Of a DNA stretch of 64,000 bases, positions 11,536 through 29,511 are shown piece by piece; the first letter of the stretch is position 1; each line of letters begins with the position of its first letter. Origin of the DNA: Escherichia phage EC.W2-6. Location of the stretch: sequence record PP445229.1. One strand, written 5' to 3'. The translations under genes and the position numbers were made by a program. The notes under the pieces are model-generated. The model was given only the letters and a program-made list of their open reading frames with translations. It had not been told where the DNA came from and did no database searches.

Positions 11536-12269
11536 GTCGTCGTCAATCACGGAAAGAATCACGGAAAGACCTTCGTCGAGAAGCACTTGTTACTCGTAAG
11601 GGTAAGCGAGAGTATGAAGAGGTGGTTTTAGCAAAGCCTGTAGTCCCTCAGAACCAGTTTCAGTCTGAGCTACTCAATGCTATTAAGACTAAACAAGTTG
11701 TGTTCACAGACGCTCCTGCGGGCTGTGGTAAGACCTTTGTAATCACTTCCACGGTTATTGATGCACTGAAGAGTGGTAAGATTCAGAAGATCATCCTGAG
11801 TCGACCTTCAGTTGGCATGGGTAACTCTCTTGGGTTACTTCCGGGAGGAATGCGTGAGAAGTTTGAACCATACCTGATGCCTATCATTGATGTTATTACT
11901 CAGCGATACGGTAAGGGATTCTATGAATGCCAAATCGGAAATGGTAACATTGAATTTGTACCTCTGGAATATCTCCGTGGTCGCTCTTTCAACGATGCCA
12001 TTGTTATCGTAGATGAGTTCCAGAACACAACTAAGGATGAAGCCTTCTCCATCATGACTCGATTGGGAGAAACCTCTCAATTGTTCTGTATGGGTGATAC
12101 AAACCAGCATGATATGCGTGGTCGCGAGAGTGGTCTAACTTGGGCTACTAACTTTATTGATGAACACGATCTGTATGAGTTTGCTGAGATTGTAGATGGT
12201 GAATCAGATGATATTGTTCGTTCTGGTTTCTGTAAGGCGATTGTTAAAGCAATGGAAAAGAAAGCTTAA
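11532..12269 (+). CDS. phoH: PhoH-like ATPase
   Basis: Walker A DAPAGCGKTF, Walker B IVIVDEFQN and PhoH-type GDTNQHD motif. Confidence 0.8.
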   Translation: MSRRQSRKESRKDLRREALVTRKGKREYEEVVLAKPVVPQNQFQSELLNAIKTKQVVFTDAPAGCGKTFVITSTVIDALKSGKIQKIILSRPSVGMGNSLGLLPGGMREKFEPYLMPIIDVITQRYGKGFYECQIGNGNIEFVPLEYLRGRSFNDAIVIVDEFQNTTKDEAFSIMTRLGETSQLFCMGDTNQHDMRGRESGLTWATNFIDEHDLYEFAEIVDGESDDIVRSGFCKAIVKAMEKKA

Positions 12270-16912: not shown

Positions 16913-17107
16913 GTGGAAAGAACGAGAGGAGAAAGAGTGATGGAAGGTATTTACCGTAAACCGCCTCCAAAATATAACATCCTTTATACTGATGCAACAG
17001 GTGAGTTTAGAAGTGTGTTAGTTTACACGGATGAAGAACGAAACCAAATGGTTGCTGCTATTGAAGCCAATGGTGGTACAATCATGCGAATTTATAACAT
17101 AACATAA
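16913..17107 (+). CDS. hypothetical protein (64 aa)
   Basis: ORF with GGAG upstream. Confidence 0.4.
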   Translation: MERTRGERVMEGIYRKPPPKYNILYTDATGEFRSVLVYTDEERNQMVAAIEANGGTIMRIYNIT

Positions 17108-17116
17108 GGAATATCA

Positions 17117-17293
17117 ATGACTGCTTCTGAATTAAAAGAAACCCTATCCACTGAAGAAGGTAAAGCTTTCTTCTTATCTCAAGTACACTCTATGGGTAAA
17201 GATGCCCTTCGCCAAGCAGTCGTTGAGCTTACTGGTGTAGTGATTGACTTGAGTATTGAAAATGAAACACTTGAAGCTAAAGTGAACGGTTAA
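17117..17293 (+). CDS. small hypothetical protein (58 aa)
   Basis: Not in track; AAGGAATATCA upstream; followed by hairpin terminator. Confidence 0.35.
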   Translation: MTASELKETLSTEEGKAFFLSQVHSMGKDALRQAVVELTGVVIDLSIENETLEAKVNG

Positions 17294-17300
17294 ATAAGAA

Positions 17301-17323
17301 GCTGCCTTCGGGCGGCTTTTCTT
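17301..17323 (+). terminator. rho-independent terminator
   Basis: GCTGCC-TTCG-GGCGGC hairpin followed by TTTTCTT. Confidence 0.6.
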
Positions 17324-17339
17324 GTCTAAAGGATTTGAC

Positions 17340-17732
17340 ATGAATATTGGTTTAGATTATGATGACACTTACACAGCAGATAGACGTCTGTGGAGAGATG
17401 TGATAGGATTGATGAAAGGGTATGGACATGATGTAAGATTCGTGACTTTCCGTTTCTCAGAGCCTAATGGTTATGATAACGTGGATATCCTCTATGATGC
17501 AGAGACCCTGCAAATCCCTGTCATCTTTTGTAATGGTGTGCAGAAGGATGAGGTGTGTCGACAGTTAGGTTTCTTCGTCGATATCTGGATTGATGACTTC
17601 CCTGTTGGAATCCCCAAAAAGGACCACCTAGATGGTATGCTGAAGGGCGTAAGACTTAATGACCTTAGGGCAGCACCTCCTGTAGAAATAGCCGCTCCTG
17701 TGTACTCTGAAGAGCCTTTGGTGATTCGATGA
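17340..17732 (+). CDS. HAD-superfamily-like hydrolase (putative nucleotidase)
   Basis: N-terminal GLDYDDTYT fits the DxDxT motif I; IWIDDFP is motif IV-like. Confidence 0.45.
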   Translation: MNIGLDYDDTYTADRRLWRDVIGLMKGYGHDVRFVTFRFSEPNGYDNVDILYDAETLQIPVIFCNGVQKDEVCRQLGFFVDIWIDDFPVGIPKKDHLDGMLKGVRLNDLRAAPPVEIAAPVYSEEPLVIR

Positions 17733-17896
17733 AGAAATATAGTGTATGGATTAACGAGGAAGAAGAAGGTTTTGATGAAGCTGGAGGGTGGGTGAATATC
17801 CTAAACACCGACGACATAGAAGAGGCCGAGAAGTGCGCCCTAAACTATAACTCTGGATATTATGAAAGAAATTGGGAATATGGGGAAGAAGAATGA
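17729..17896 (+). CDS. small acidic hypothetical protein (55 aa)
   Basis: Not in track; ATGA overlap with upstream gene. Confidence 0.3.
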   Translation: MKKYSVWINEEEEGFDEAGGWVNILNTDDIEEAEKCALNYNSGYYERNWEYGEEE

Positions 17897-18114
17897 TTTG
17901 GGTTCACACTTATAGAATTGGAAAGAAAGGGCTTACTACTATTCATACCTCTGAAGACAGTGCTAAAGCATCTCAGGCTGTACTGAAAGGGAAGATCACA
18001 CCTTATGTAGTCGCTGAAGAAAAGAAGAGTCCTCCAGTTTTGGAATACTTAGGAACAGGTAAAGCTTATACAGCACTGGATGTTATTAACAACAAACAAG
18101 GAGATGTGGCATAA
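17893..18114 (+). CDS. hypothetical protein (73 aa)
   Basis: Start moved to ATG overlapping the upstream stop (ATGA). Confidence 0.4.
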   Translation: MIWVHTYRIGKKGLTTIHTSEDSAKASQAVLKGKITPYVVAEEKKSPPVLEYLGTGKAYTALDVINNKQGDVA

Positions 18115-18116
18115 AA

Positions 18117-18332
18117 ATGGAATACATTGATAAATACTCAAGTGAAGACTCAACCAACGCTGAAGTTTTGTTCGTACTAAAAACAGACTGCCTCGAACAT
18201 GGTCAGCTCATTAACTTTATGGAGTTGGCAAAACTTAAAGAAGAGATTGATCAACTATACAGCGATGAGCAATCCAGATTACTTTCCCTGTCCCTGCTAG
18301 GTGACTTAACTTGTGATGGGTGTACTATCTAA
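18117..18332 (+). CDS. hypothetical protein (71 aa)
   Basis: ORF in operon context. Confidence 0.4.
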   Translation: MEYIDKYSSEDSTNAEVLFVLKTDCLEHGQLINFMELAKLKEEIDQLYSDEQSRLLSLSLLGDLTCDGCTI

Positions 18333-18341
18333 GAGGTCTTT

Positions 18342-18845
18342 ATGGCTGAAGTTTATTTTGCAGGGGATGGTCACTTAGGCCATCGCAACATCTGTAGTTT
18401 TCGTAAGCAATTTAAAACCATCGAAGAACACGACAAAGTAATCCTAGCTGCATTTGATCATGTAACTAAGCGTGATAAAATCTTCTTTACCGGTGATTGG
18501 GTGTTTGAAAAGTATGCCCTTGATATCATCGCTGAAGTAAGAGGAGAGAAGCATCTAGTCTTAGGAAACCATGACAGGTTAGAACTTCTCCCTGATATGA
18601 TGAAAGTCTTCCGTAGAATCTCTGGTGATTATAAATATAAAGAGTTTTGGGTAACTCATATTCCTATTCACACTGATGAGATGAGAGGAAAGTTTAACAT
18701 TTATGCTCATACACACAACCATGTAATTGATGATTGGAGATATTTCTGTACATCAATGGAGCAAATTGACTATAAAGCTGTTTCTCTGCAAGAGATTAGG
18801 AAGGTCTTTGATGAAAGAAGAAAAGAACAAGATCTCATTATTTAA
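18342..18845 (+). CDS. calcineurin-like metallophosphoesterase
   Basis: GDGHLGH, TGDWV, GNHD and HTHNH motifs in the canonical order. Confidence 0.7.
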   Translation: MAEVYFAGDGHLGHRNICSFRKQFKTIEEHDKVILAAFDHVTKRDKIFFTGDWVFEKYALDIIAEVRGEKHLVLGNHDRLELLPDMMKVFRRISGDYKYKEFWVTHIPIHTDEMRGKFNIYAHTHNHVIDDWRYFCTSMEQIDYKAVSLQEIRKVFDERRKEQDLII

Positions 18846-19323
18846 AGAACCTGTAGTACATAAAGATTCTATCAGAGATCAATATAATGAGATGTTAAAG
18901 AAACAAGCTGATTCTAATCTTCGTTATCAGAGGATAGTAGAACAATCTAACTTTAAAGGTTTACTTGAATGGTAACTTATATCCTTTACTTTTTAGCTTT
19001 CTTAGGAATAGTCTTTTTATCTATTCTTATTGAATTTGGTTTAAGTAAGTTAGTTAATTATTTAGGTAATAAGTAATTAATATTCTTTTAAATAGAGAAT
19101 CAAAGTCCCTAGGAGTCCCTACAACCTAAATCAAGGATTCCTTAATTCTCTATTTTTATCTCGCAGGTGGCTCCTGCCCTTCGGTACTTGCAAGGGATTC
19201 TGTGAATTGCCCAATATACAAGCCTGCAATAACTTTATCAGCTATACAATATATACATTACTAGTGTGATATATCTACTACCAAAGATACTTATATTATA
19301 TAGTACTCTTATCGGTATAAGCG

Positions 19324-19332
19324 TAATGTATA
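19324..19332 (+). promoter_or_regulatory. TAATGTATA element (candidate phage-sigma-dependent promoter)
   Basis: Exact 9-mer about 60 nt upstream of the putative SSB gene; mirrored by an inverted copy at about 19255. Confidence 0.45.
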
Positions 19333-19391
19333 CTATACATAACCGCTCAAAGAGAGCAACAATCTTTCAAATTAAATAAGGAAATTAAAAT

Positions 19392-20138
19392 ATGTCTATG
19401 ATTCCAACTATCGCAACCGCTTCCCGTAAATCCAACTACGATGTAATCCCTGATGGTGAGTACGAAGCACGTATCGTTCGTGTAGTAGGTTTGGGTGTTC
19501 ACAATCGTGACCCTTGGATTGACCCGAAGACCAAAGCAGTGACTCCTAAGAATCCGGCTTTCCGTATGGATTTAGCTTTCGAGCTGATTGGTGTTGATGC
19601 TACTGGTAAAGATTCCGATGGTAAGGCATTAGAACCACGTCCAGCTTGCCAGTTCAAGAGCTATGATGTAAACCCACGAGCTAAGAACTCTGGTATTCTT
19701 GATCTTTGCAAGATGATTGACCCAAGTATTCAAGCACTGAAAGGTGATCTATCTTGGTTCAAGGATGTTCTGTTAGGTCAGCCTGTTAACATTCTGGTTA
19801 ACTCTTATACTAACAAAGCTGGTGAAGTTAAAAACTCCATCAAGACCATTTCTCCAATCCCAACCAAATATCGTGCAGCAGTTGGTGAAGCTCGTAGTCC
19901 TCTGGTATTCTTCGAACCATATGCTGAAACCGACGAGAACGTAGCATCCTACCAACTGATGTTCCCGTTCCAGCGCAACCTGCTTACTCAAGCTAATGAC
20001 GCTAAGAACATGCCTCTGGCTGGTCGTGAAATTACTCGTGCTTCTGAAACAGAGCAGAAAGAAGCTACTCCTTCAATCCCTACGATTGATAAAGAGCCTG
20101 CTTCTACTTACGAAGACGACAACGATAGCCCATTCTAA
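19392..20138 (+). CDS. putative single-stranded DNA-binding protein
   Basis: Acidic C-terminal tail ending in Phe (EDDNDSPF), as in T7 gp2.5 and bacterial SSB; long promoter-bearing leader upstream and hairpin terminator downstream. Confidence 0.5.
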   Translation: MSMIPTIATASRKSNYDVIPDGEYEARIVRVVGLGVHNRDPWIDPKTKAVTPKNPAFRMDLAFELIGVDATGKDSDGKALEPRPACQFKSYDVNPRAKNSGILDLCKMIDPSIQALKGDLSWFKDVLLGQPVNILVNSYTNKAGEVKNSIKTISPIPTKYRAAVGEARSPLVFFEPYAETDENVASYQLMFPFQRNLLTQANDAKNMPLAGREITRASETEQKEATPSIPTIDKEPASTYEDDNDSPF

Positions 20139-20160
20139 TAACTCTCCTTGTTATAGCTTA

Positions 20161-20182
20161 GCCACCTCCGGGTGGCTTTTTT
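20161..20182 (+). terminator. rho-independent terminator
   Basis: GCCACC-TCCG-GGTGGC hairpin followed by TTTTTT, directly after the putative SSB gene. Confidence 0.65.
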
Positions 20183-20195
20183 CGTTGGAGACAAC

Positions 20196-20546
20196 ATGCA
20201 AAACACATTAAGTGATAACTTAGGGTTTATCGTTTTCTCAGCTCTTGTATTCTTTGGTGGTATGAAGTTTAACGAATATCAAACAGACAGCAGTAATCTG
20301 GACAAAGAGAAGCACCAGCAAGAGTTAGAGATTGAAAGAAGTAGAGCAGCTGATGAAGTTGCTCAGAGAGTTCTTACCGGTTTATCTAACTGGAAGAAGA
20401 ACACAGAAACCGTTTATAAAGAGATGCATTATGAGAAAACTAAACCAGTTTTTTATGATGTCTGCGCTAGTGATGACTATGTCCGCATGTTCAATGATCG
20501 ACAGCAGCAGGCAATCAATGCCCTTACCAACAAACCTAAAAGCTGA
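20196..20546 (+). CDS. putative i-spanin (Rz-like)
   Basis: N-terminal TM helix (LGFIVFSALVFFGGM) followed by charged coiled-coil-like periplasmic region; contains an overlapping lipoprotein ORF in another frame. Confidence 0.5.
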   Translation: MQNTLSDNLGFIVFSALVFFGGMKFNEYQTDSSNLDKEKHQQELEIERSRAADEVAQRVLTGLSNWKKNTETVYKEMHYEKTKPVFYDVCASDDYVRMFNDRQQQAINALTNKPKS

Positions 20547-20690
20547 ATGCAGGGTTGACTTACCTTTTTTAGAGAGTGCTCAAGGAAAAGCACTAGCCAC
20601 TACGTTGGAGTGGTATCAGGACCAGTACACAGAATGTGCTGCCAATCACAATGGATTGTTAGAAGCTCTGAAAGAGCGTGGAATAGAATA

Positions 20691-20691
<1 letters not shown>
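20431..20691 (+). CDS. putative o-spanin (Rz1-like lipoprotein), overlapping the i-spanin gene
   Basis: Signal peptide MRKLNQFFMMSALVMTMSAC with lipobox-like MSAC; Pro-containing mature part; overlapped architecture. Confidence 0.45.
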
Positions 20692-22183
<1,492 letters not shown>

Positions 22184-25042: not shown

Positions 25043-28000
25043 TCACTCCTTAGGTCGAACTCTTACACGGAGTCTCGATTGACGCTTACTGCGTTCAAGC
25101 TTCTCTGACAATGAGCCACGTTTAATCTTAGGCTTCCCTTCGTCATTAAACTTCTCCAAGAACTGCAAGTACTCAGTACGATTTGTTGTCTTGTAAGAAG
25201 GAATCTTGATATCAGGGTTCTCTTCAATCACACGTCTCATCTTCGCTACATCATCCCTACCAAGCAACTTACTCTTAGCCTGTTCAGCTGTAGAACCAAA
25301 GATCTTCTCCAGTGCTCTGGATTTGTTACCACCTGCGGAAGAAGCACCAAGTTTAGCAATGGCAGAGTAATCATCAGCACTAAACCAAGCTACTGGATTA
25401 TCACCATACTTCTTCTTGTTTTCAGCAGCAGTCTGCAATGCACGTACAAAGCGACGGTTGTTACCAGCCTTATCTGCACCATGAACCCTGTCTAAAACTT
25501 CAGCCACACTAGCTAATTCATCCAAGCTCTTCCCGCTTAAGAAAGCTTTCTCTACTTTATCAGCAAAGACCTCTTCCTGTTGTTTAATGCTTTCCAAGAT
25601 ATCAGAATTTGCTTGAGATTTTTCATCATCAGGTAGAGCAGAACGAATCTTCTCCATCTCCAATTCTTCCTCTTGCAGTTTCTTAATATCAGAGTCAACC
25701 TTCTGAGCCTCCTCAATAGCCTTCCTAGTATCCGCATCCAAGTTATCAAGCTTACCTTCAGTATCTCCAGTAACCTTAACAATCTCTTTCTCGATAGGAG
25801 TCATTGATTCGTACTTCTTAGCAAACTTCTCAACATCAGCTTCGATACGAGAACGAGCATTCTGATGTTCAGTAGGAGTCATAGGTTTCTCAAGAAGTGC
25901 ATAACGGTTGTCCATATAGGAACCAGCAAACGCTTCAGCATCCTCTCTAGATATGCCCTTATCTTCCATAGTACGCATCAGGCGGCGATGAATGTCATCA
26001 CGTTGACGTTGTACTGCCATAAGATCATTCTCACGCTCTTGGGCCGCTTTAAGCTCTTCACTGCGCTTAACTCTCTTGTCCACATCAAACTTACGGTTCA
26101 TCTCTTCCGCTTGCTCGTACATCTTGTTCCACTTGGCCTGACGAGCATCTTCCTCTGCATCAGTTAAACGACGCTGACGATCAAGGTAATCTGACTCGGC
26201 GTTGTGGATACGTTCAATGTAACTACGGAACTTCTCTGGAGGAACTGGAGAGTTCTTGTCATGGTGAGCAGCCAACTGTTTCAATGTACGAGATTCCTGA
26301 GCCTCACGAACAGGTTTAGGTAAACCTTCCATCATCTTCTCAATCTCACTCTTCTGAGCTGCAATAGCCTCTAAAGTTTTACGTTCATTCTCAACAGCAG
26401 CCTTAGCATCTGAACGAGCCTGAGCCTTTTTCCTGAGGGTAGCAAGACGTTCTTCACGAGCCTGTAAGTGCTTAGCAGCAGCTTCGTACTGAGAGTTCTT
26501 GTTAGCTTTGTTGAAGGCATTCACTTCTCTGTTGTAGGTGTTAATAAACCCATCCCAAATATCCTTCATCTGACCAACTTCCAAAGCCTCTTCCCTACCA
26601 GCCTTCTCTGAAGATTTAAACTTCCCATCTACAAAGTCATTCATCAGCTTACGCATAGCATCTTTCTGAGCAGGACGTAAAGGTTCTGAATCAATCAAAG
26701 CATCAATCTCAGACTGAAGCTCTTTCTTCTGATCAACCAGTTTAGGAGCATCTTTCTTATCGAAAGCTTTGTTCTCTTCTAGAGCTTGTTGGTACAGTCT
26801 ATCAAACTCATCCTCACGCTGCTTCTGATACAACCTTTCAGCACGACGTTTCAGACTATCCAAGTTAGTTACGTTCCCACCTAAACCTTTCTCTTCAGCA
26901 CGTAATGCCTTAGTAGCAATGTCTTCTGGCAGACCACGTTCTTTAACCCATTCAGCAAAATTAGTTCGTACAGTGTTGTTCTTAGCAGTAGCAATACCTT
27001 GCTGAGAGGCCAGCTGGTTACGAGCCATTTCTTCATGACGTTCAGTGTTGATAGCATTATCTTCCTGACGAATACGACGCATCAGTTCCTTAGGATCGCC
27101 TTTATAAGCCAAGAAGTTTTCAGCAGTAGCTTTAGCTTTAGCAGCCTTAGAGTACAGAGAACGAGCAAAGCGTTCTGCACGATCTTTAGTAGCCTGACGA
27201 GCAGCACTAGACATAGCAGCTAAACGTTCTACACCACTTGCCGGTTTAACGTCCTGTACAGCTTCCTTAGGAGCTTTAGGAGCACGAGCAGGTAACGGCT
27301 CAGCTTTGACTGTTGGTTCCTCTACGGTTGGTTCTGGAGCCTGTGCGGCCTCTTCTTGAGCACGTTGCTGTTCCATTGCACGACGCTCCTCTAGAGGGTT
27401 ACGAGCAGGGAGAGGTTCAGCCTGTGGAGCTTGTTCGACCGGAGCTTCTTGAGCTGCTGCTGCCTCTTCTTCAGCTCGACGCTGTTCAGCCTGACGGATA
27501 GCGCGTCTTTGCGCAACTAAATCACGAGCTGTGAGAGGGGTTTCTTGAGGAGTAGAAGAAGGAAGATTTTCTTCCGTCACAGTACTAGAAGAAGGCTCCC
27601 GAACCGGTTCGGTTTCCACGTCATTTTGCGTCTTAAATTTAATGTCATCAACAACTGGTTCTTCTTCCATCTTAGCACGAGCTTCATCAGCAGTAGATTT
27701 AGCACGAGCAACTTCCAAATCACCACGAGCCAGAGAGCGGATAGCTTCACTATTAGACTCTTGTTGCTTAACACGTTGAGAACGGGCACGCTGAGAAGAG
27801 AAGCGATTCAGAGCATATTTAGCAGCACCGAGAGTGTTCATCACCAGACTAGGAGAAGAAGCCTCACGGAATCCATCATCAGTCAAGGAAGTCCAACCAC
27901 GATCTTGGTTGCTCATGAATTTAGCTGTATTGTTCAGAGTATAAGCATCTTGAATAGGATTAAAACCTTCAGGCATACCTTTCAGTTTCTTCAACCCACC

Positions 28001-29464
28001 AATAGCTTTCTTCATCTCTGGAGAAACATTATCAGCCATCTTCTGTAGTTCAGCAGCTTTCTCTACAAAGTTATTAAAGTCTTCGCCATCACGAGCTTTG
28101 AATCGATTTGCTTCATTGTAGAAAGTCTTGTAAGCATCAATGAAATCACGGTCGGCTTGTGTACGGTTCTTAATATCAATCGGACTACCAGTAAAATCAC
28201 CAGAAGCTCGGAGAGAGGTTAATTCACGATCTAGATTATCTAGAACATCTGTAAGAGCTTTCGTGTTGTCTTTGGTGTAGTCAGCCATTGCATCCTTCAT
28301 AGCAACAGCCTGCTTCTGGTTGTGCTCGTTATCAGCGAATGCTTTACCACGAGTCTTAGCAGGAGAAGCTAAAGGGTTGAGGCCCGGAATGTTGGAATGT
28401 TCTTTCTGAATGGAAGCAGCTTTCTCAGCACGAGCTTGGTCAGTATTAAGAATACGCTGAGCAGCAGGAGAGTCTACAGCAACAGCATCTGTAATACGGA
28501 ATCCATTCTCATCCAGAAGGTTCAGAGCAGAAGCAGCGTTAGCAGTTTCAGCTTTAGAGTAAGCTTCTTTCAGTTCATCAATATTCTTAGCACTACGAAT
28601 TAGTTCATCATCAGCAGCAATATCAGTCTTCGCATACTCTGGAGTGTTCTTGAAGACAGTAGAATCCGGACGGTTAATCAAACCATGAACCCCACCAACT
28701 GCACCACCGAATGCAGCACCCATAGCACCTTCTTCGATAGCACCTTCTAATACATTAGCAAAGGTTGTATCATCTCCATGCTTGTTCTGAGCTTCAGCAG
28801 CACCTACAAGAGCGCCACCTTTAGCACCAGCCACTGCGTTAGTAGCAACGTTCTGACCAATACGTCCAAGTGTGGACTCAGCTGTACCAACAGCGCCCGG
28901 AAGGATTCTCTGAGCCGCATAGTTAGCACCACCAACTAAGGCTGCATCTAGAATAGATTTATCTTCCCCCTCTTCAGGGGTTTGGTCTGCATATGCACGA
29001 CCTGTCTCACGACCTGCGATGATAGCAGCAGCAGCCAATGGGTTAGCAACAGTCATACCAATATCACCAGCAACGCCAGCATACTGACCTACAGTTTTAC
29101 CAATCCCATCCTCAATCTTATCCATACGTTCTTTCAGAAGATTCTGAGAGTTCTCTTGGATACGCTTACCATAACTAGTTTGTGCTCCAGCTAGATTCTC
29201 ACCAATCTCAACTAAACCACCAATACCTTTAGCAGCACTAGCTGCAATATTTGCACCACCAGATTGAAGAGCATTTGACACACCTTGAGCAAACTCACCT
29301 ATAGCACCACGTTCTTCTTGTTGTGGTTGTGCTACTGGCTGTTCCTCAGGAATAGAGCCACCTGCTGCCTTATATTGTTCTCTCATTTGAGCTTGTTGCT
29401 CCGGAGAGGCATTCAGATACGCAGGAGCTTTGGAAGCTTCTTCCCACGGTTTAATGTTAGCCAT
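25043..29464 (-). CDS. large internal virion / ejection protein (1473 aa)
   Basis: Start placed at internal ATG (MANIKPWEE) about 40 nt downstream of a TAATGTATA element; Gly/Ala-rich N-terminal region and long coiled-coil-rich body. Confidence 0.55.
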   Translation of the reverse strand: MANIKPWEEASKAPAYLNASPEQQAQMREQYKAAGGSIPEEQPVAQPQQEERGAIGEFAQGVSNALQSGGANIAASAAKGIGGLVEIGENLAGAQTSYGKRIQENSQNLLKERMDKIEDGIGKTVGQYAGVAGDIGMTVANPLAAAAIIAGRETGRAYADQTPEEGEDKSILDAALVGGANYAAQRILPGAVGTAESTLGRIGQNVATNAVAGAKGGALVGAAEAQNKHGDDTTFANVLEGAIEEGAMGAAFGGAVGGVHGLINRPDSTVFKNTPEYAKTDIAADDELIRSAKNIDELKEAYSKAETANAASALNLLDENGFRITDAVAVDSPAAQRILNTDQARAEKAASIQKEHSNIPGLNPLASPAKTRGKAFADNEHNQKQAVAMKDAMADYTKDNTKALTDVLDNLDRELTSLRASGDFTGSPIDIKNRTQADRDFIDAYKTFYNEANRFKARDGEDFNNFVEKAAELQKMADNVSPEMKKAIGGLKKLKGMPEGFNPIQDAYTLNNTAKFMSNQDRGWTSLTDDGFREASSPSLVMNTLGAAKYALNRFSSQRARSQRVKQQESNSEAIRSLARGDLEVARAKSTADEARAKMEEEPVVDDIKFKTQNDVETEPVREPSSSTVTEENLPSSTPQETPLTARDLVAQRRAIRQAEQRRAEEEAAAAQEAPVEQAPQAEPLPARNPLEERRAMEQQRAQEEAAQAPEPTVEEPTVKAEPLPARAPKAPKEAVQDVKPASGVERLAAMSSAARQATKDRAERFARSLYSKAAKAKATAENFLAYKGDPKELMRRIRQEDNAINTERHEEMARNQLASQQGIATAKNNTVRTNFAEWVKERGLPEDIATKALRAEEKGLGGNVTNLDSLKRRAERLYQKQREDEFDRLYQQALEENKAFDKKDAPKLVDQKKELQSEIDALIDSEPLRPAQKDAMRKLMNDFVDGKFKSSEKAGREEALEVGQMKDIWDGFINTYNREVNAFNKANKNSQYEAAAKHLQAREERLATLRKKAQARSDAKAAVENERKTLEAIAAQKSEIEKMMEGLPKPVREAQESRTLKQLAAHHDKNSPVPPEKFRSYIERIHNAESDYLDRQRRLTDAEEDARQAKWNKMYEQAEEMNRKFDVDKRVKRSEELKAAQERENDLMAVQRQRDDIHRRLMRTMEDKGISREDAEAFAGSYMDNRYALLEKPMTPTEHQNARSRIEADVEKFAKKYESMTPIEKEIVKVTGDTEGKLDNLDADTRKAIEEAQKVDSDIKKLQEEELEMEKIRSALPDDEKSQANSDILESIKQQEEVFADKVEKAFLSGKSLDELASVAEVLDRVHGADKAGNNRRFVRALQTAAENKKKYGDNPVAWFSADDYSAIAKLGASSAGGNKSRALEKIFGSTAEQAKSKLLGRDDVAKMRRVIEENPDIKIPSYKTTNRTEYLQFLEKFNDEGKPKIKRGSLSEKLERSKRQSRLRVRVRPKE

Positions 29465-29502
29465 AACGTCTCCTTTTATAAATAAAAATGTCCTACCCCC
29501 TA

Positions 29503-29511
29503 TATACATTA
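29503..29511 (-). promoter_or_regulatory. TAATGTATA element on minus strand (candidate phage-sigma-dependent late promoter)
   Basis: Exact 9-mer (minus-strand sense) about 40 nt upstream of the large internal protein gene start. Confidence 0.45.

Follow-up and report, generated by a model that had tools for sequence, protein, structure and literature searches.

We analyzed the region upstream of the homolog of phiEco32 gene 40 in Escherichia phage EC.W2-6 (sequence record PP445229.1), using a stretch of 64,000 nucleotides that we call the window and number from its first letter. This region probably holds two divergent promoters of the type read by the phage sigma factor gp36, the leftward of which, termed PL here, would make a small non-coding RNA. 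The rightward promoter is the ortholog of the phiEco32 middle promoter P40 and was known already; PL is an unlisted site, and the small RNA predicted from it is unannotated. Positions 17000-22000 of the window are 100% identical, at the same coordinates, to Escherichia phage EC.W8-1 (PQ030848.1, Kuravirus, Gordonclarkvirinae), a phiEco32-like Kuravirus and close relative of phiEco32, and the locus sits between a block of small middle genes and the gene 40 homolog (19392-20138). For comparison, 30 relatives were taken from GenBank, IMG/VR and metagenomes, representing 28 distinct haplotypes of the region.

A Predicted Leftward Promoter Opposite P40

The promoter elements discussed below are as follows.

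19252-19260 (read 19260 to 19252), minus strand: PL -10 element TAATGTATA, the left arm of the inverted repeat IR1; all positions invariant
19271-19283 (read 19283 to 19271), minus strand: PL -35 element TGGTAGTAGATAT, -38 to -26; sequence and spacing as in P68
19245, minus strand: predicted PL start, an A, 7 nt past the -10 element, placed by the numbering of the P68 cryo-EM structure
19324-19332, plus strand: P40 -10 element TAATGTATA, the right arm of IR1; known from the literature, all positions invariant
19301-19306, plus strand: P40 -35 region TAGTAC, with A-34 present and G-37 absent in the alignment of seven sites
19339, plus strand: predicted P40 transcription start, placed by P68 numbering
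8089-8120, plus strand: middle promoter P68, TGGTAGTAGATAT-N10-AAATGTATA; reference for PL, the composite motif being found nowhere else in the genome

The sequence TAATGTATA is the published -10 consensus for promoters read by gp36, of which six have been listed, namely P6, P13, P26, P40, P58 and P68 (Lavysh et al., 2022, Table S3). A scan of the full genome of 76,408 bp with the pattern [AT]AATGTA[TG]A returned exactly seven matches (8112+, 12281+, 19324+, 19260-, 29511-, 46341- and 53756-), corresponding to these six promoters and the leftward site. PL has the form TGGTAGTAGATAT-N10-TAATGTATA, its -35 13-mer lying exactly 10 nt upstream of the -10 element, and by P68 numbering TGGTAG occupies -38 to -33, so that both G-37 and A-34 are present. 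These positions matter in P68: in its open complex with gp79/gp36, solved by cryo-EM, AATGTA forms positions -14 to -9, gp36 residue R187 bonds with -37G, Y186 packs on the T opposite -34A, and mutation of these residues and of the contacted bases abolishes transcription (Nucleic Acids Res 2025, PMC12276001). The window has one more exact copy of the 13-mer, that of P68, and the next-best matches carry at least 2 mismatches. A sequence expected about 0.004 times per genome is thus seen twice, each time 10 nt upstream of [AT]AATGTATA. Five IMG/VR Kuravirus genomes, that of phiEco32 among them, likewise contain the composite motif exactly two times each, at P68 and PL; the phiEco32 PL is identical to that of the window.

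Compared directly, P68 and PL share the 13-nt -35 sequence TGGTAGTAGATAT, the 10-nt spacing, G-37, A-34, AATGTA at -14 to -9 and GTA at the predicted start; they differ in that PL has T for A at -15, which brings it nearer the consensus, and in that PL opposes the surrounding middle genes and has no open reading frame (ORF) downstream. As a candidate member of the class, PL carries the gp36 pattern tAATGTAtA (AATGTA at -14 to -9) in its -10 element, the G-37 and A-34 of the -35 region, and conserved elements with a spacer of fixed length across 30 genomes. It departs from the six listed promoters in one respect: they have a sense-oriented gene downstream, whereas no conserved ORF follows PL. 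A downstream sense gene is a habit of annotation and not a mechanistic requirement. This comparison makes it very probable that PL is a genuine promoter of the gp36 type and the P68 kind, one not listed before. It appears in neither of the two promoter lists examined, with six entries each (Lavysh et al., 2022, Table S3; SU10 Table S2), Pavlova et al. (2012) lying outside this comparison. A sigma-70-like site (TAGATA-18-TATATT, 9 of 12 positions) overlaps PL on the minus strand; in a scan for sigma-70 promoters such sites were not enriched, being fewer than in shuffled sequences.

The mirrored copy is conserved in relatives. All nine positions of the leftward -10 element are invariant among the 30 relatives, as are all nine of the P40 -10 element and 10 of the 13 positions of the PL -35 element (28 haplotypes). 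The 10-nt PL spacer (19261-19270) has not one invariant position out of 10 and a mean majority frequency of 0.57, but its length is constant in the 30 genomes; a spacer that varies in sequence at fixed length is typical of a promoter with two elements and is not what recent shared ancestry would leave. A distant metagenomic clade (L049, L050, L053 and L054), whose gene 40 is about 71% identical, has kept the whole unit, as has L051, with TGGTAG, a variable spacer shorter by 1 nt, and TAATGAATA or GAATGTATT as the -10 element. Relatives outside the Gordonclarkvirinae show the rightward promoter only and a short intergenic region.

PL and P40 are separated by about 71 bp in most relatives but by about 61 bp in MN05 and SR02. 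In six genomes (L004, L025, L026 and L044-L046) the separation grows to about 190 bp because an insert of about 120-146 bp with a 48-aa ORF lies between the two promoters; this ORF, whose ATG abuts the PL -35 element, is followed by a CTACC-TTCC-GGTAG hairpin. The six insert-bearing relatives have CGGTAG at -38 to -33 of P40.

That the rightward element drives the downstream gene, as the preliminary description of this DNA had inferred from its letters, is supported and was in print before: P40, with TAATGTATA, precedes gene 40 in phiEco32, NJ01, ECBP2, KBNP1711, SU10 and 172-1 (Lavysh et al., 2022, Table S3), and the SU10 list prints 'aagcgtaatgtatactatacataaccgctcaaagagagcaa', exactly the rightward element, with no entry for its leftward counterpart (SU10 Table S2; phi32_40 corresponds to SU10_37). 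The element found here is without any difference from P40 of phiEco32. The rightward half of our finding was therefore known. The phiEco32 promoter is reportedly also credited to Pavlova, 2012.

The Predicted Leftward RNA and Its Conserved Core

Transcription from PL would start near 19245 and yield a non-coding RNA of about 150-160 nt, or about 155 nt with a 3' end at the hairpin H4. Read 5' to 3', the predicted RNA comprises H1, a central domain, H3, the linker GAGAUAAAAAU and H4.

19229-19245, minus strand: H1, 5'-terminal hairpin AUAGCU-GAUAA-AGUUAU, beginning at the predicted +1 (+1 to +17)
19183-19228, minus strand: variable central domain, found in three or more unrelated alleles and in every case bracketed by UUGCA and GAAGGGC
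19164-19178, minus strand: H3, small GC hairpin GCAGG-AGCCA-CCUGC, 100% paired in 15 haplotypes
19090-19155, both strands: H4, long hairpin equal to the inverted repeat IR2, with the basal 12-16 bp kept in 15 haplotypes
19088-19182, minus strand: ultra-conserved non-coding core, made up of H4, the linker, H3 and GAAGGGC

The predicted 5' end is marked by a hairpin that persists as its sequence changes. H1 has six sequence variants in the Kuravirus set, all of which fold on the minus strand, and distant relatives have other stems in its place (CAUC...GAUG in L049/L053/L054, CUCU...AGAG in L051); a hairpin at the predicted 5' end (+1 to +3) is found in eight of eight stem-sequence types, and one pair position is C-G, U-A or A-U in different phages. 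Two variants, accounting for 14 of the 30 genomes including the window, form H1 on the minus strand only, because their G.U pair becomes an A.C mismatch on the plus strand. The same asymmetry is seen in H4, where two invariant G.U pairs, together with one G.U that replaces an A-U, are all mismatched on the plus strand, and the minus-strand fold is the more stable by 3.8-9.6 kcal/mol in eight of eight sequence variants. For the whole unit the folds reach -46.8 kcal/mol (z -2.3) on the minus strand versus -35.3 kcal/mol (z -1.3) on the plus strand; three genomes with allele B were tested as well, and in these too the minus strand gave the stabler fold. H3 contains one compensatory change, A-U to U-A in L051 (GCUGG/CCAGC). 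A long-range stem proposed by RNAalifold, UUGCAGG/CCUGCGA, which would close the central domain, was rejected because the changes in L051 compensate H3 but break that stem.

Alleles of the central domain, namely A of about 41 nt, B of about 67 nt and, in the L049 clade, C, are spread as a mosaic among otherwise similar phages. Alleles B and C have AUAAGUU in a loop in common, and the hairpin of allele C shows two compensatory pairs between L054 and L051, as read from the sequences. No conserved ORF is found on the leftward transcript from 19245; its 21- and 32-aa ORFs with TTG starts lie in the allelic region and, being unconserved across alleles, were rejected as its product.

The 3' part of the predicted RNA is conserved to an unusual degree. 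In relatives where gene 40 has fallen to 62-72% identity at third-codon positions, the 93-nt core (19090-19182) still shows 92-100%, which puts it on a par with codon positions 1 and 2 of that gene. It is present once in each of 98 deposited Gordonclarkvirinae phage records and annotated in none of them. Conservation of this degree exceeds what a plain terminator needs, and the core probably has a sequence-specific partner. A search of 5,426 E. coli genomes found no counterpart of the core, and mimicry of the host was rejected on this ground. Resemblance to a CRISPR repeat or a CsrA sponge was loose only (four GGA motifs versus about three expected by chance), and both ideas were set aside. 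Rfam searches at E<=10 on the region and its relatives gave only chance-level matches (E about 1 or higher); a match to the DUF2815 RNA reached 15 bits versus a gathering score of 41 and aligned only over ribosome-binding-site sequence. A scan for tRNA and tmRNA genes found none. Within H4, a tandem pair of AGTCCCTA (19104-19121, plus strand) has a spacing of 10 nt, and both copies become AGTCCT in another haplotype.

On the plus strand H4 is followed by the T-run TTTTTAT (19155-19161), of which TTTTT is present in all haplotypes but L021 (TTTT), and this conserved run makes it plausible that H4 terminates the rightward operon upstream. The preliminary description had proposed that the leftward copy could drive a short antisense RNA ending at the hairpin. 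Comparative evidence supports the promoter and the RNA well; the word antisense fits loosely, since the predicted RNA (19245-19090) overlaps no gene up to H4 and is thus not cis-antisense. Read-through of H4 would make it antisense to a 35-aa ORF to the left, or to the phosphoesterase gene in phages without that ORF.

The length of the non-coding region also needs revision. The annotated gap before the gene 40 homolog is 416 bp, and the preliminary description had accordingly spoken of a 400-bp intergenic region, but the gap contains the following reading frame.

18969-19076, plus strand: hydrophobic ORF of 35 aa, MVTYILYFLAFLGIVFLSILIEFGLSKLVNYLGNK, unannotated in the window record and overlapping the stop codon of the preceding gene

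This ORF matches phrog_24970 (E 1.8e-25) and is annotated in the relatives SU7, MN05, SR02, EcM-vB1, SDYTW1 and UKE3. A non-coding stretch does exist, with a true extent of 19077-19391, or about 315 bp.

Proposed Mechanism and Alternative Explanations

We suggest that each of the mirrored TAATGTATA boxes serves as the -10 element of a promoter of its own, and that these two promoters, independent and divergent, stand back to back and would both be read by host RNA polymerase with gp36, aided by gp79. P40 would drive gene 40 and the genes after it. At PL, the C-terminal domain of gp36 would read TGGTAG (G-37, A-34) and its N-terminal domain AATGTA (-14 to -9). H4 would serve both directions, stopping the rightward upstream operon with the help of its T5 run and, less efficiently, ending the leftward RNA. 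The leftward RNA is supported by the P68-type -35 element at the right spacing, the invariant elements, the compensated 5' hairpin and the strand-asymmetric G.U pairs; that the gp36 holoenzyme fires at PL, as well as the exact start and the 3' end, we infer from sequence comparison.

Several observations weigh against this proposal. The distant clade has AATGAA, a deviation at position -10 of the -10 element, at a spacing 1 nt shorter, and PL is absent from the 7-11-like SeKF_80, from Cronobacter A24, from Aeromonas LAh_8 and from the L008/L052/L056 clade. Covariation is confined to H1, one pair of H3 and the allele C hairpin, most of the RNA being invariant, and the covariation score of the core was matched by 26 of 500 shuffles. 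The whole window has no match in Rfam 15 at the gathering threshold. A search for trans targets in the phage genome found none of significance; the best (15 of 16 nt at 11913-11928, E 0.6) involves the allelic part of the RNA and was rejected as chance. As a terminator H4 is unconvincing: its stem has 2 G-C among 11 basal pairs and a large interior, a consensus scan does not call it, and on the minus strand only 2-4 U, the weak U-tract UAUUUAAAAG, follow the invariant stem. The weak U-tract and the failed scan leave the 3' end of the leftward RNA at H4 uncertain. Finally, a literature search for stranded RNA-seq or mapped 5' ends of any Kuravirus came up empty; the only RNA-seq study mentioning Kuraviruses mapped its reads to the host, names no phage in its RNA-seq methods, and has results that center on non-Kuravirus phages.

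The preliminary description had raised the possibility that the pair is an operator, and a dimeric regulator, or a cruciform, acting on the mirrored TAATGTATA half-sites to control gene 40 would suit the perfect 10-bp repeat IR1 and the near-palindrome at 19323-19343. This idea was not borne out and is highly improbable: the distance between the half-sites varies three-fold among relatives, which argues against an operator pair or cruciform, each arm has a complete gp36 promoter around it, the upstream copy is a lone half-site and the third copy is unconserved as a motif, and inverted repeats of such size are no commoner in the window than chance would have it. Very unlikely, though less so, is a purely local effect in which the RNA is irrelevant and polymerase at PL blocks read-through from upstream or tunes P40 through shared DNA or supercoiling. 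The promoters do stand back to back with 17 bp between their -38 positions, PL faces a terminator-like hairpin, and the version shorter by 10 bp preserves helical phase; yet the PL-P40 spacing is not kept (about 61, 71 or 190 bp), and such an effect leaves the compensated 5' hairpin and the minus-strand-specific pairing unexplained, as it does a 93-nt core conserved like non-synonymous sites.

A transcription-primed replication origin, in which PL would supply an RNA primer, an R-loop or transcriptional activation, and the core, the AGTCCCTA repeats and the AT-rich flank would form the origin at the DNA level, is in our view unlikely. It would explain a promoter without an ORF inside a replication gene cluster, directly upstream of an SSB-like gene; it agrees with a core conserved in sequence and not in structure alone, with tandem 8-mers that change together in another haplotype at their 10-nt spacing, with a stretch of more than 80% A+T just past H4 in both flank types (counted from the sequences), and with a weak, sub-threshold NCBIfam match of gene 40 to a 'phage replication initiation protein'. 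Against it, the co-oriented gene block shows no change of GC skew at the locus, neither an initiator nor an iteron array is evident, a literature search on the phiEco32 origin found nothing, and the G.U pattern points to a constraint on a minus-strand RNA and not on duplex DNA, with the proviso that a structured primer RNA would fit this pattern too. Under our preferred reading of two divergent gp36 promoters with a leftward small RNA, the sequence conservation of the 3' core and the minus-strand-specific pairing make the RNA itself, acting through a conserved partner, our best guess for the functional product, a guess to which we give somewhat less than an even chance. We think it rather unlikely that the RNA serves only to insulate the gene 40 unit from read-through, and a little less likely again that its role is to prime or activate replication. 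It is doubtful, if conceivable, that every phiEco32-like coliphage makes an abundant PL RNA of about 155 nt in the middle or late phase, with the core as a working part of the infection. If this were true, the core could be the primer or activator of a replication origin, or an RNA binding a conserved phage or host factor, and the lineage-specific central domain would adapt the RNA to different partners.

Comparison with Known Systems

The oop RNA of phage lambda is a short RNA made from its own promoter by host sigma-70 polymerase; it is transcribed against the neighboring operon, overlaps the 3' end of cII and ends at a terminator hairpin. The predicted PL RNA resembles oop in being a small untranslated RNA with a dedicated promoter in the replication region, opposed to the flanking genes and with a hairpin end, but it overlaps no gene up to H4, has a predicted phage-sigma promoter and shows no sequence similarity to oop. 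At the T4 origins oriF and oriG, a middle promoter and a downstream unwinding element give rise to an R-loop primer, and the T7 primary origin is a further parallel for origins primed by transcription. PL is like oriF and oriG in being a middle-type promoter without a gene, beside replication genes and with an AT-rich stretch beyond; it is unlike them in that about 155 nt of structured, GC-richer sequence separate promoter and AT-rich stretch. H4, a single hairpin between an A-run and a T-run (CTTTTAAATAGAG...CTCTATTTTTAT), recalls bidirectional intrinsic terminators, but differs from them in its AU-rich stem, its interior of 38-44 nt, its failure in the consensus scan and a sequence conserved well beyond the needs of a terminator.

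The model system for the sigma factor gp36 and its partner gp79 is phiEco32. PL would be the seventh gp36 promoter, and the transcription map, drawn only around genes, would gain an untranslated RNA. Many of the Gordonclarkvirinae phages with this unannotated RNA locus were isolated as therapy candidates. Were the RNA to mark a replication origin or to sequester a host factor, an important missing piece in the biology of these phages would be supplied.

The Inverted Repeats

Taken as bare repeats, IR1 and IR2 are no more than chance would give. IR1 consists of TATACATTAC at 19252-19261 and GTAATGTATA at 19323-19332, a perfect 10-bp inverted repeat as the preliminary description had it, with 61 nt between the arms in place of 58 and slightly shifted coordinates. 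IR2, formed by AATAGAGAAT at 19091-19100 and ATTCTCTATT at 19145-19154, is likewise perfect, enclosing 44 nt and not 43 and ending at 19154; pairing continues to 11 bp without mismatch (19090-19100 / 19145-19155), or over 14 nt at 93%. Perfect 10-bp inverted repeats whose arms are at most 100 nt apart number 11 in the window, compared with 8.7 +/- 3.8 in simulated sequences, and GTAATGTATA at one mismatch or fewer occurs 8 times versus 4.6 expected. What makes IR1 significant is the identity of its motif, the gp36 -10 element, and not the repeat as such: an inverted TAATGTATA within 100 bp of any of the six known promoters is expected by chance about 0.012 times. A third, imperfect copy, GTTATGTATA (minus strand, 19343 to 19334), turns 19323-19343 into the near-palindrome mentioned above, and is not kept as a motif among relatives.

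The Gene 40 Product and Its Leader

Two features belong to the rightward transcription unit.

19345-19357, plus strand: leader hairpin GCUC-AAAGA-GAGC close to the 5' end of the gene 40 mRNA, some 6 nt past the P40 start as predicted
19392-20138, plus strand: gene 40 homolog, 248 aa, C-terminus ...DDNDSPF; OB-fold, SSB-like

The product of gene 40 has no sequence match in Pfam or PDB; its NCBIfam match, to the 'phage replication initiation protein, NGO0469 family', lies below threshold (E 2e-5, 24 bits versus a cutoff of 75). An AlphaFold model built from a 30-sequence alignment reached a pLDDT of 82, the single-sequence AF2 model being unusable (pLDDT 36), and a Foldseek search with the former returned a list dominated by SSB, RPA and PriB at modest scores. 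The family has the C-terminal consensus DDDxPF, which we take to resemble the tip of bacterial SSB. The modeled OB fold and this acidic tail, the two features by which an SSB is recognized, make the label of putative SSB, already given to the gene in the preliminary description, a reasonable one.

The leader hairpin varies with compensation (GUCC/GGAC, GUUC/GAAC, GAAGAG/CUCUUC and GAAGG/CCUUC, in the distant relatives L008, L010, L030 and L031), and could be a 5' stem that stabilizes the mRNA or a translational operator of the SSB-like gene. In the sister clade L008-L010, L052 and L056, the apparent gene 40 promoter is TAATGGATA or TAATGGACT, with TGGTAC or TGGAAC at -38, and the leader of the gene 40 homolog contains an inverted repeat, AGCATAT...ATATGCT. 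The sequence TTCCTTAATT in H4 (19138-19147, plus strand) is 90% complementary to the ribosome-binding region of gene 40, AAATAAGGAA (19374-19383); the two would occur together only on a plus-strand read-through transcript.

Upstream Elements in Other gp36 Promoters

Alignment of the seven gp36-type sites gives TGGTAG, TGGTAG, TAGTAC, AAGAAA, TGGGAG, TAAGAC and TAAGAC at -38 to -33, with A-34 in seven of seven and T-38 in six of seven, which suggests a weak general -35 consensus in promoters hitherto described as 'single-element'. TGGTAG with A-34 as a general -35 determinant, as suggested here, would be of use to those who borrow this sigma factor, gp36, as an orthogonal one. In the late promoters P13 and P26 (46364 to 46333 and 29534 to 29503, both minus strand), a common TAAGACCTA lies exactly 14 nt upstream of TAATGTATA; the middle promoters P68 and PL have TGGTAGTAGATAT in common instead. 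Judged from these four sites, the upstream elements may be class-specific, TAAGACCTA for late and TGGTAGTAGATAT for middle promoters. The mechanically called ORF 25043..29509 begins at an ATG within the P26 -10 element ATAATGTATA (29503-29511, minus strand), and its real start is presumably the ATG after aaaggagacgtt, further downstream.

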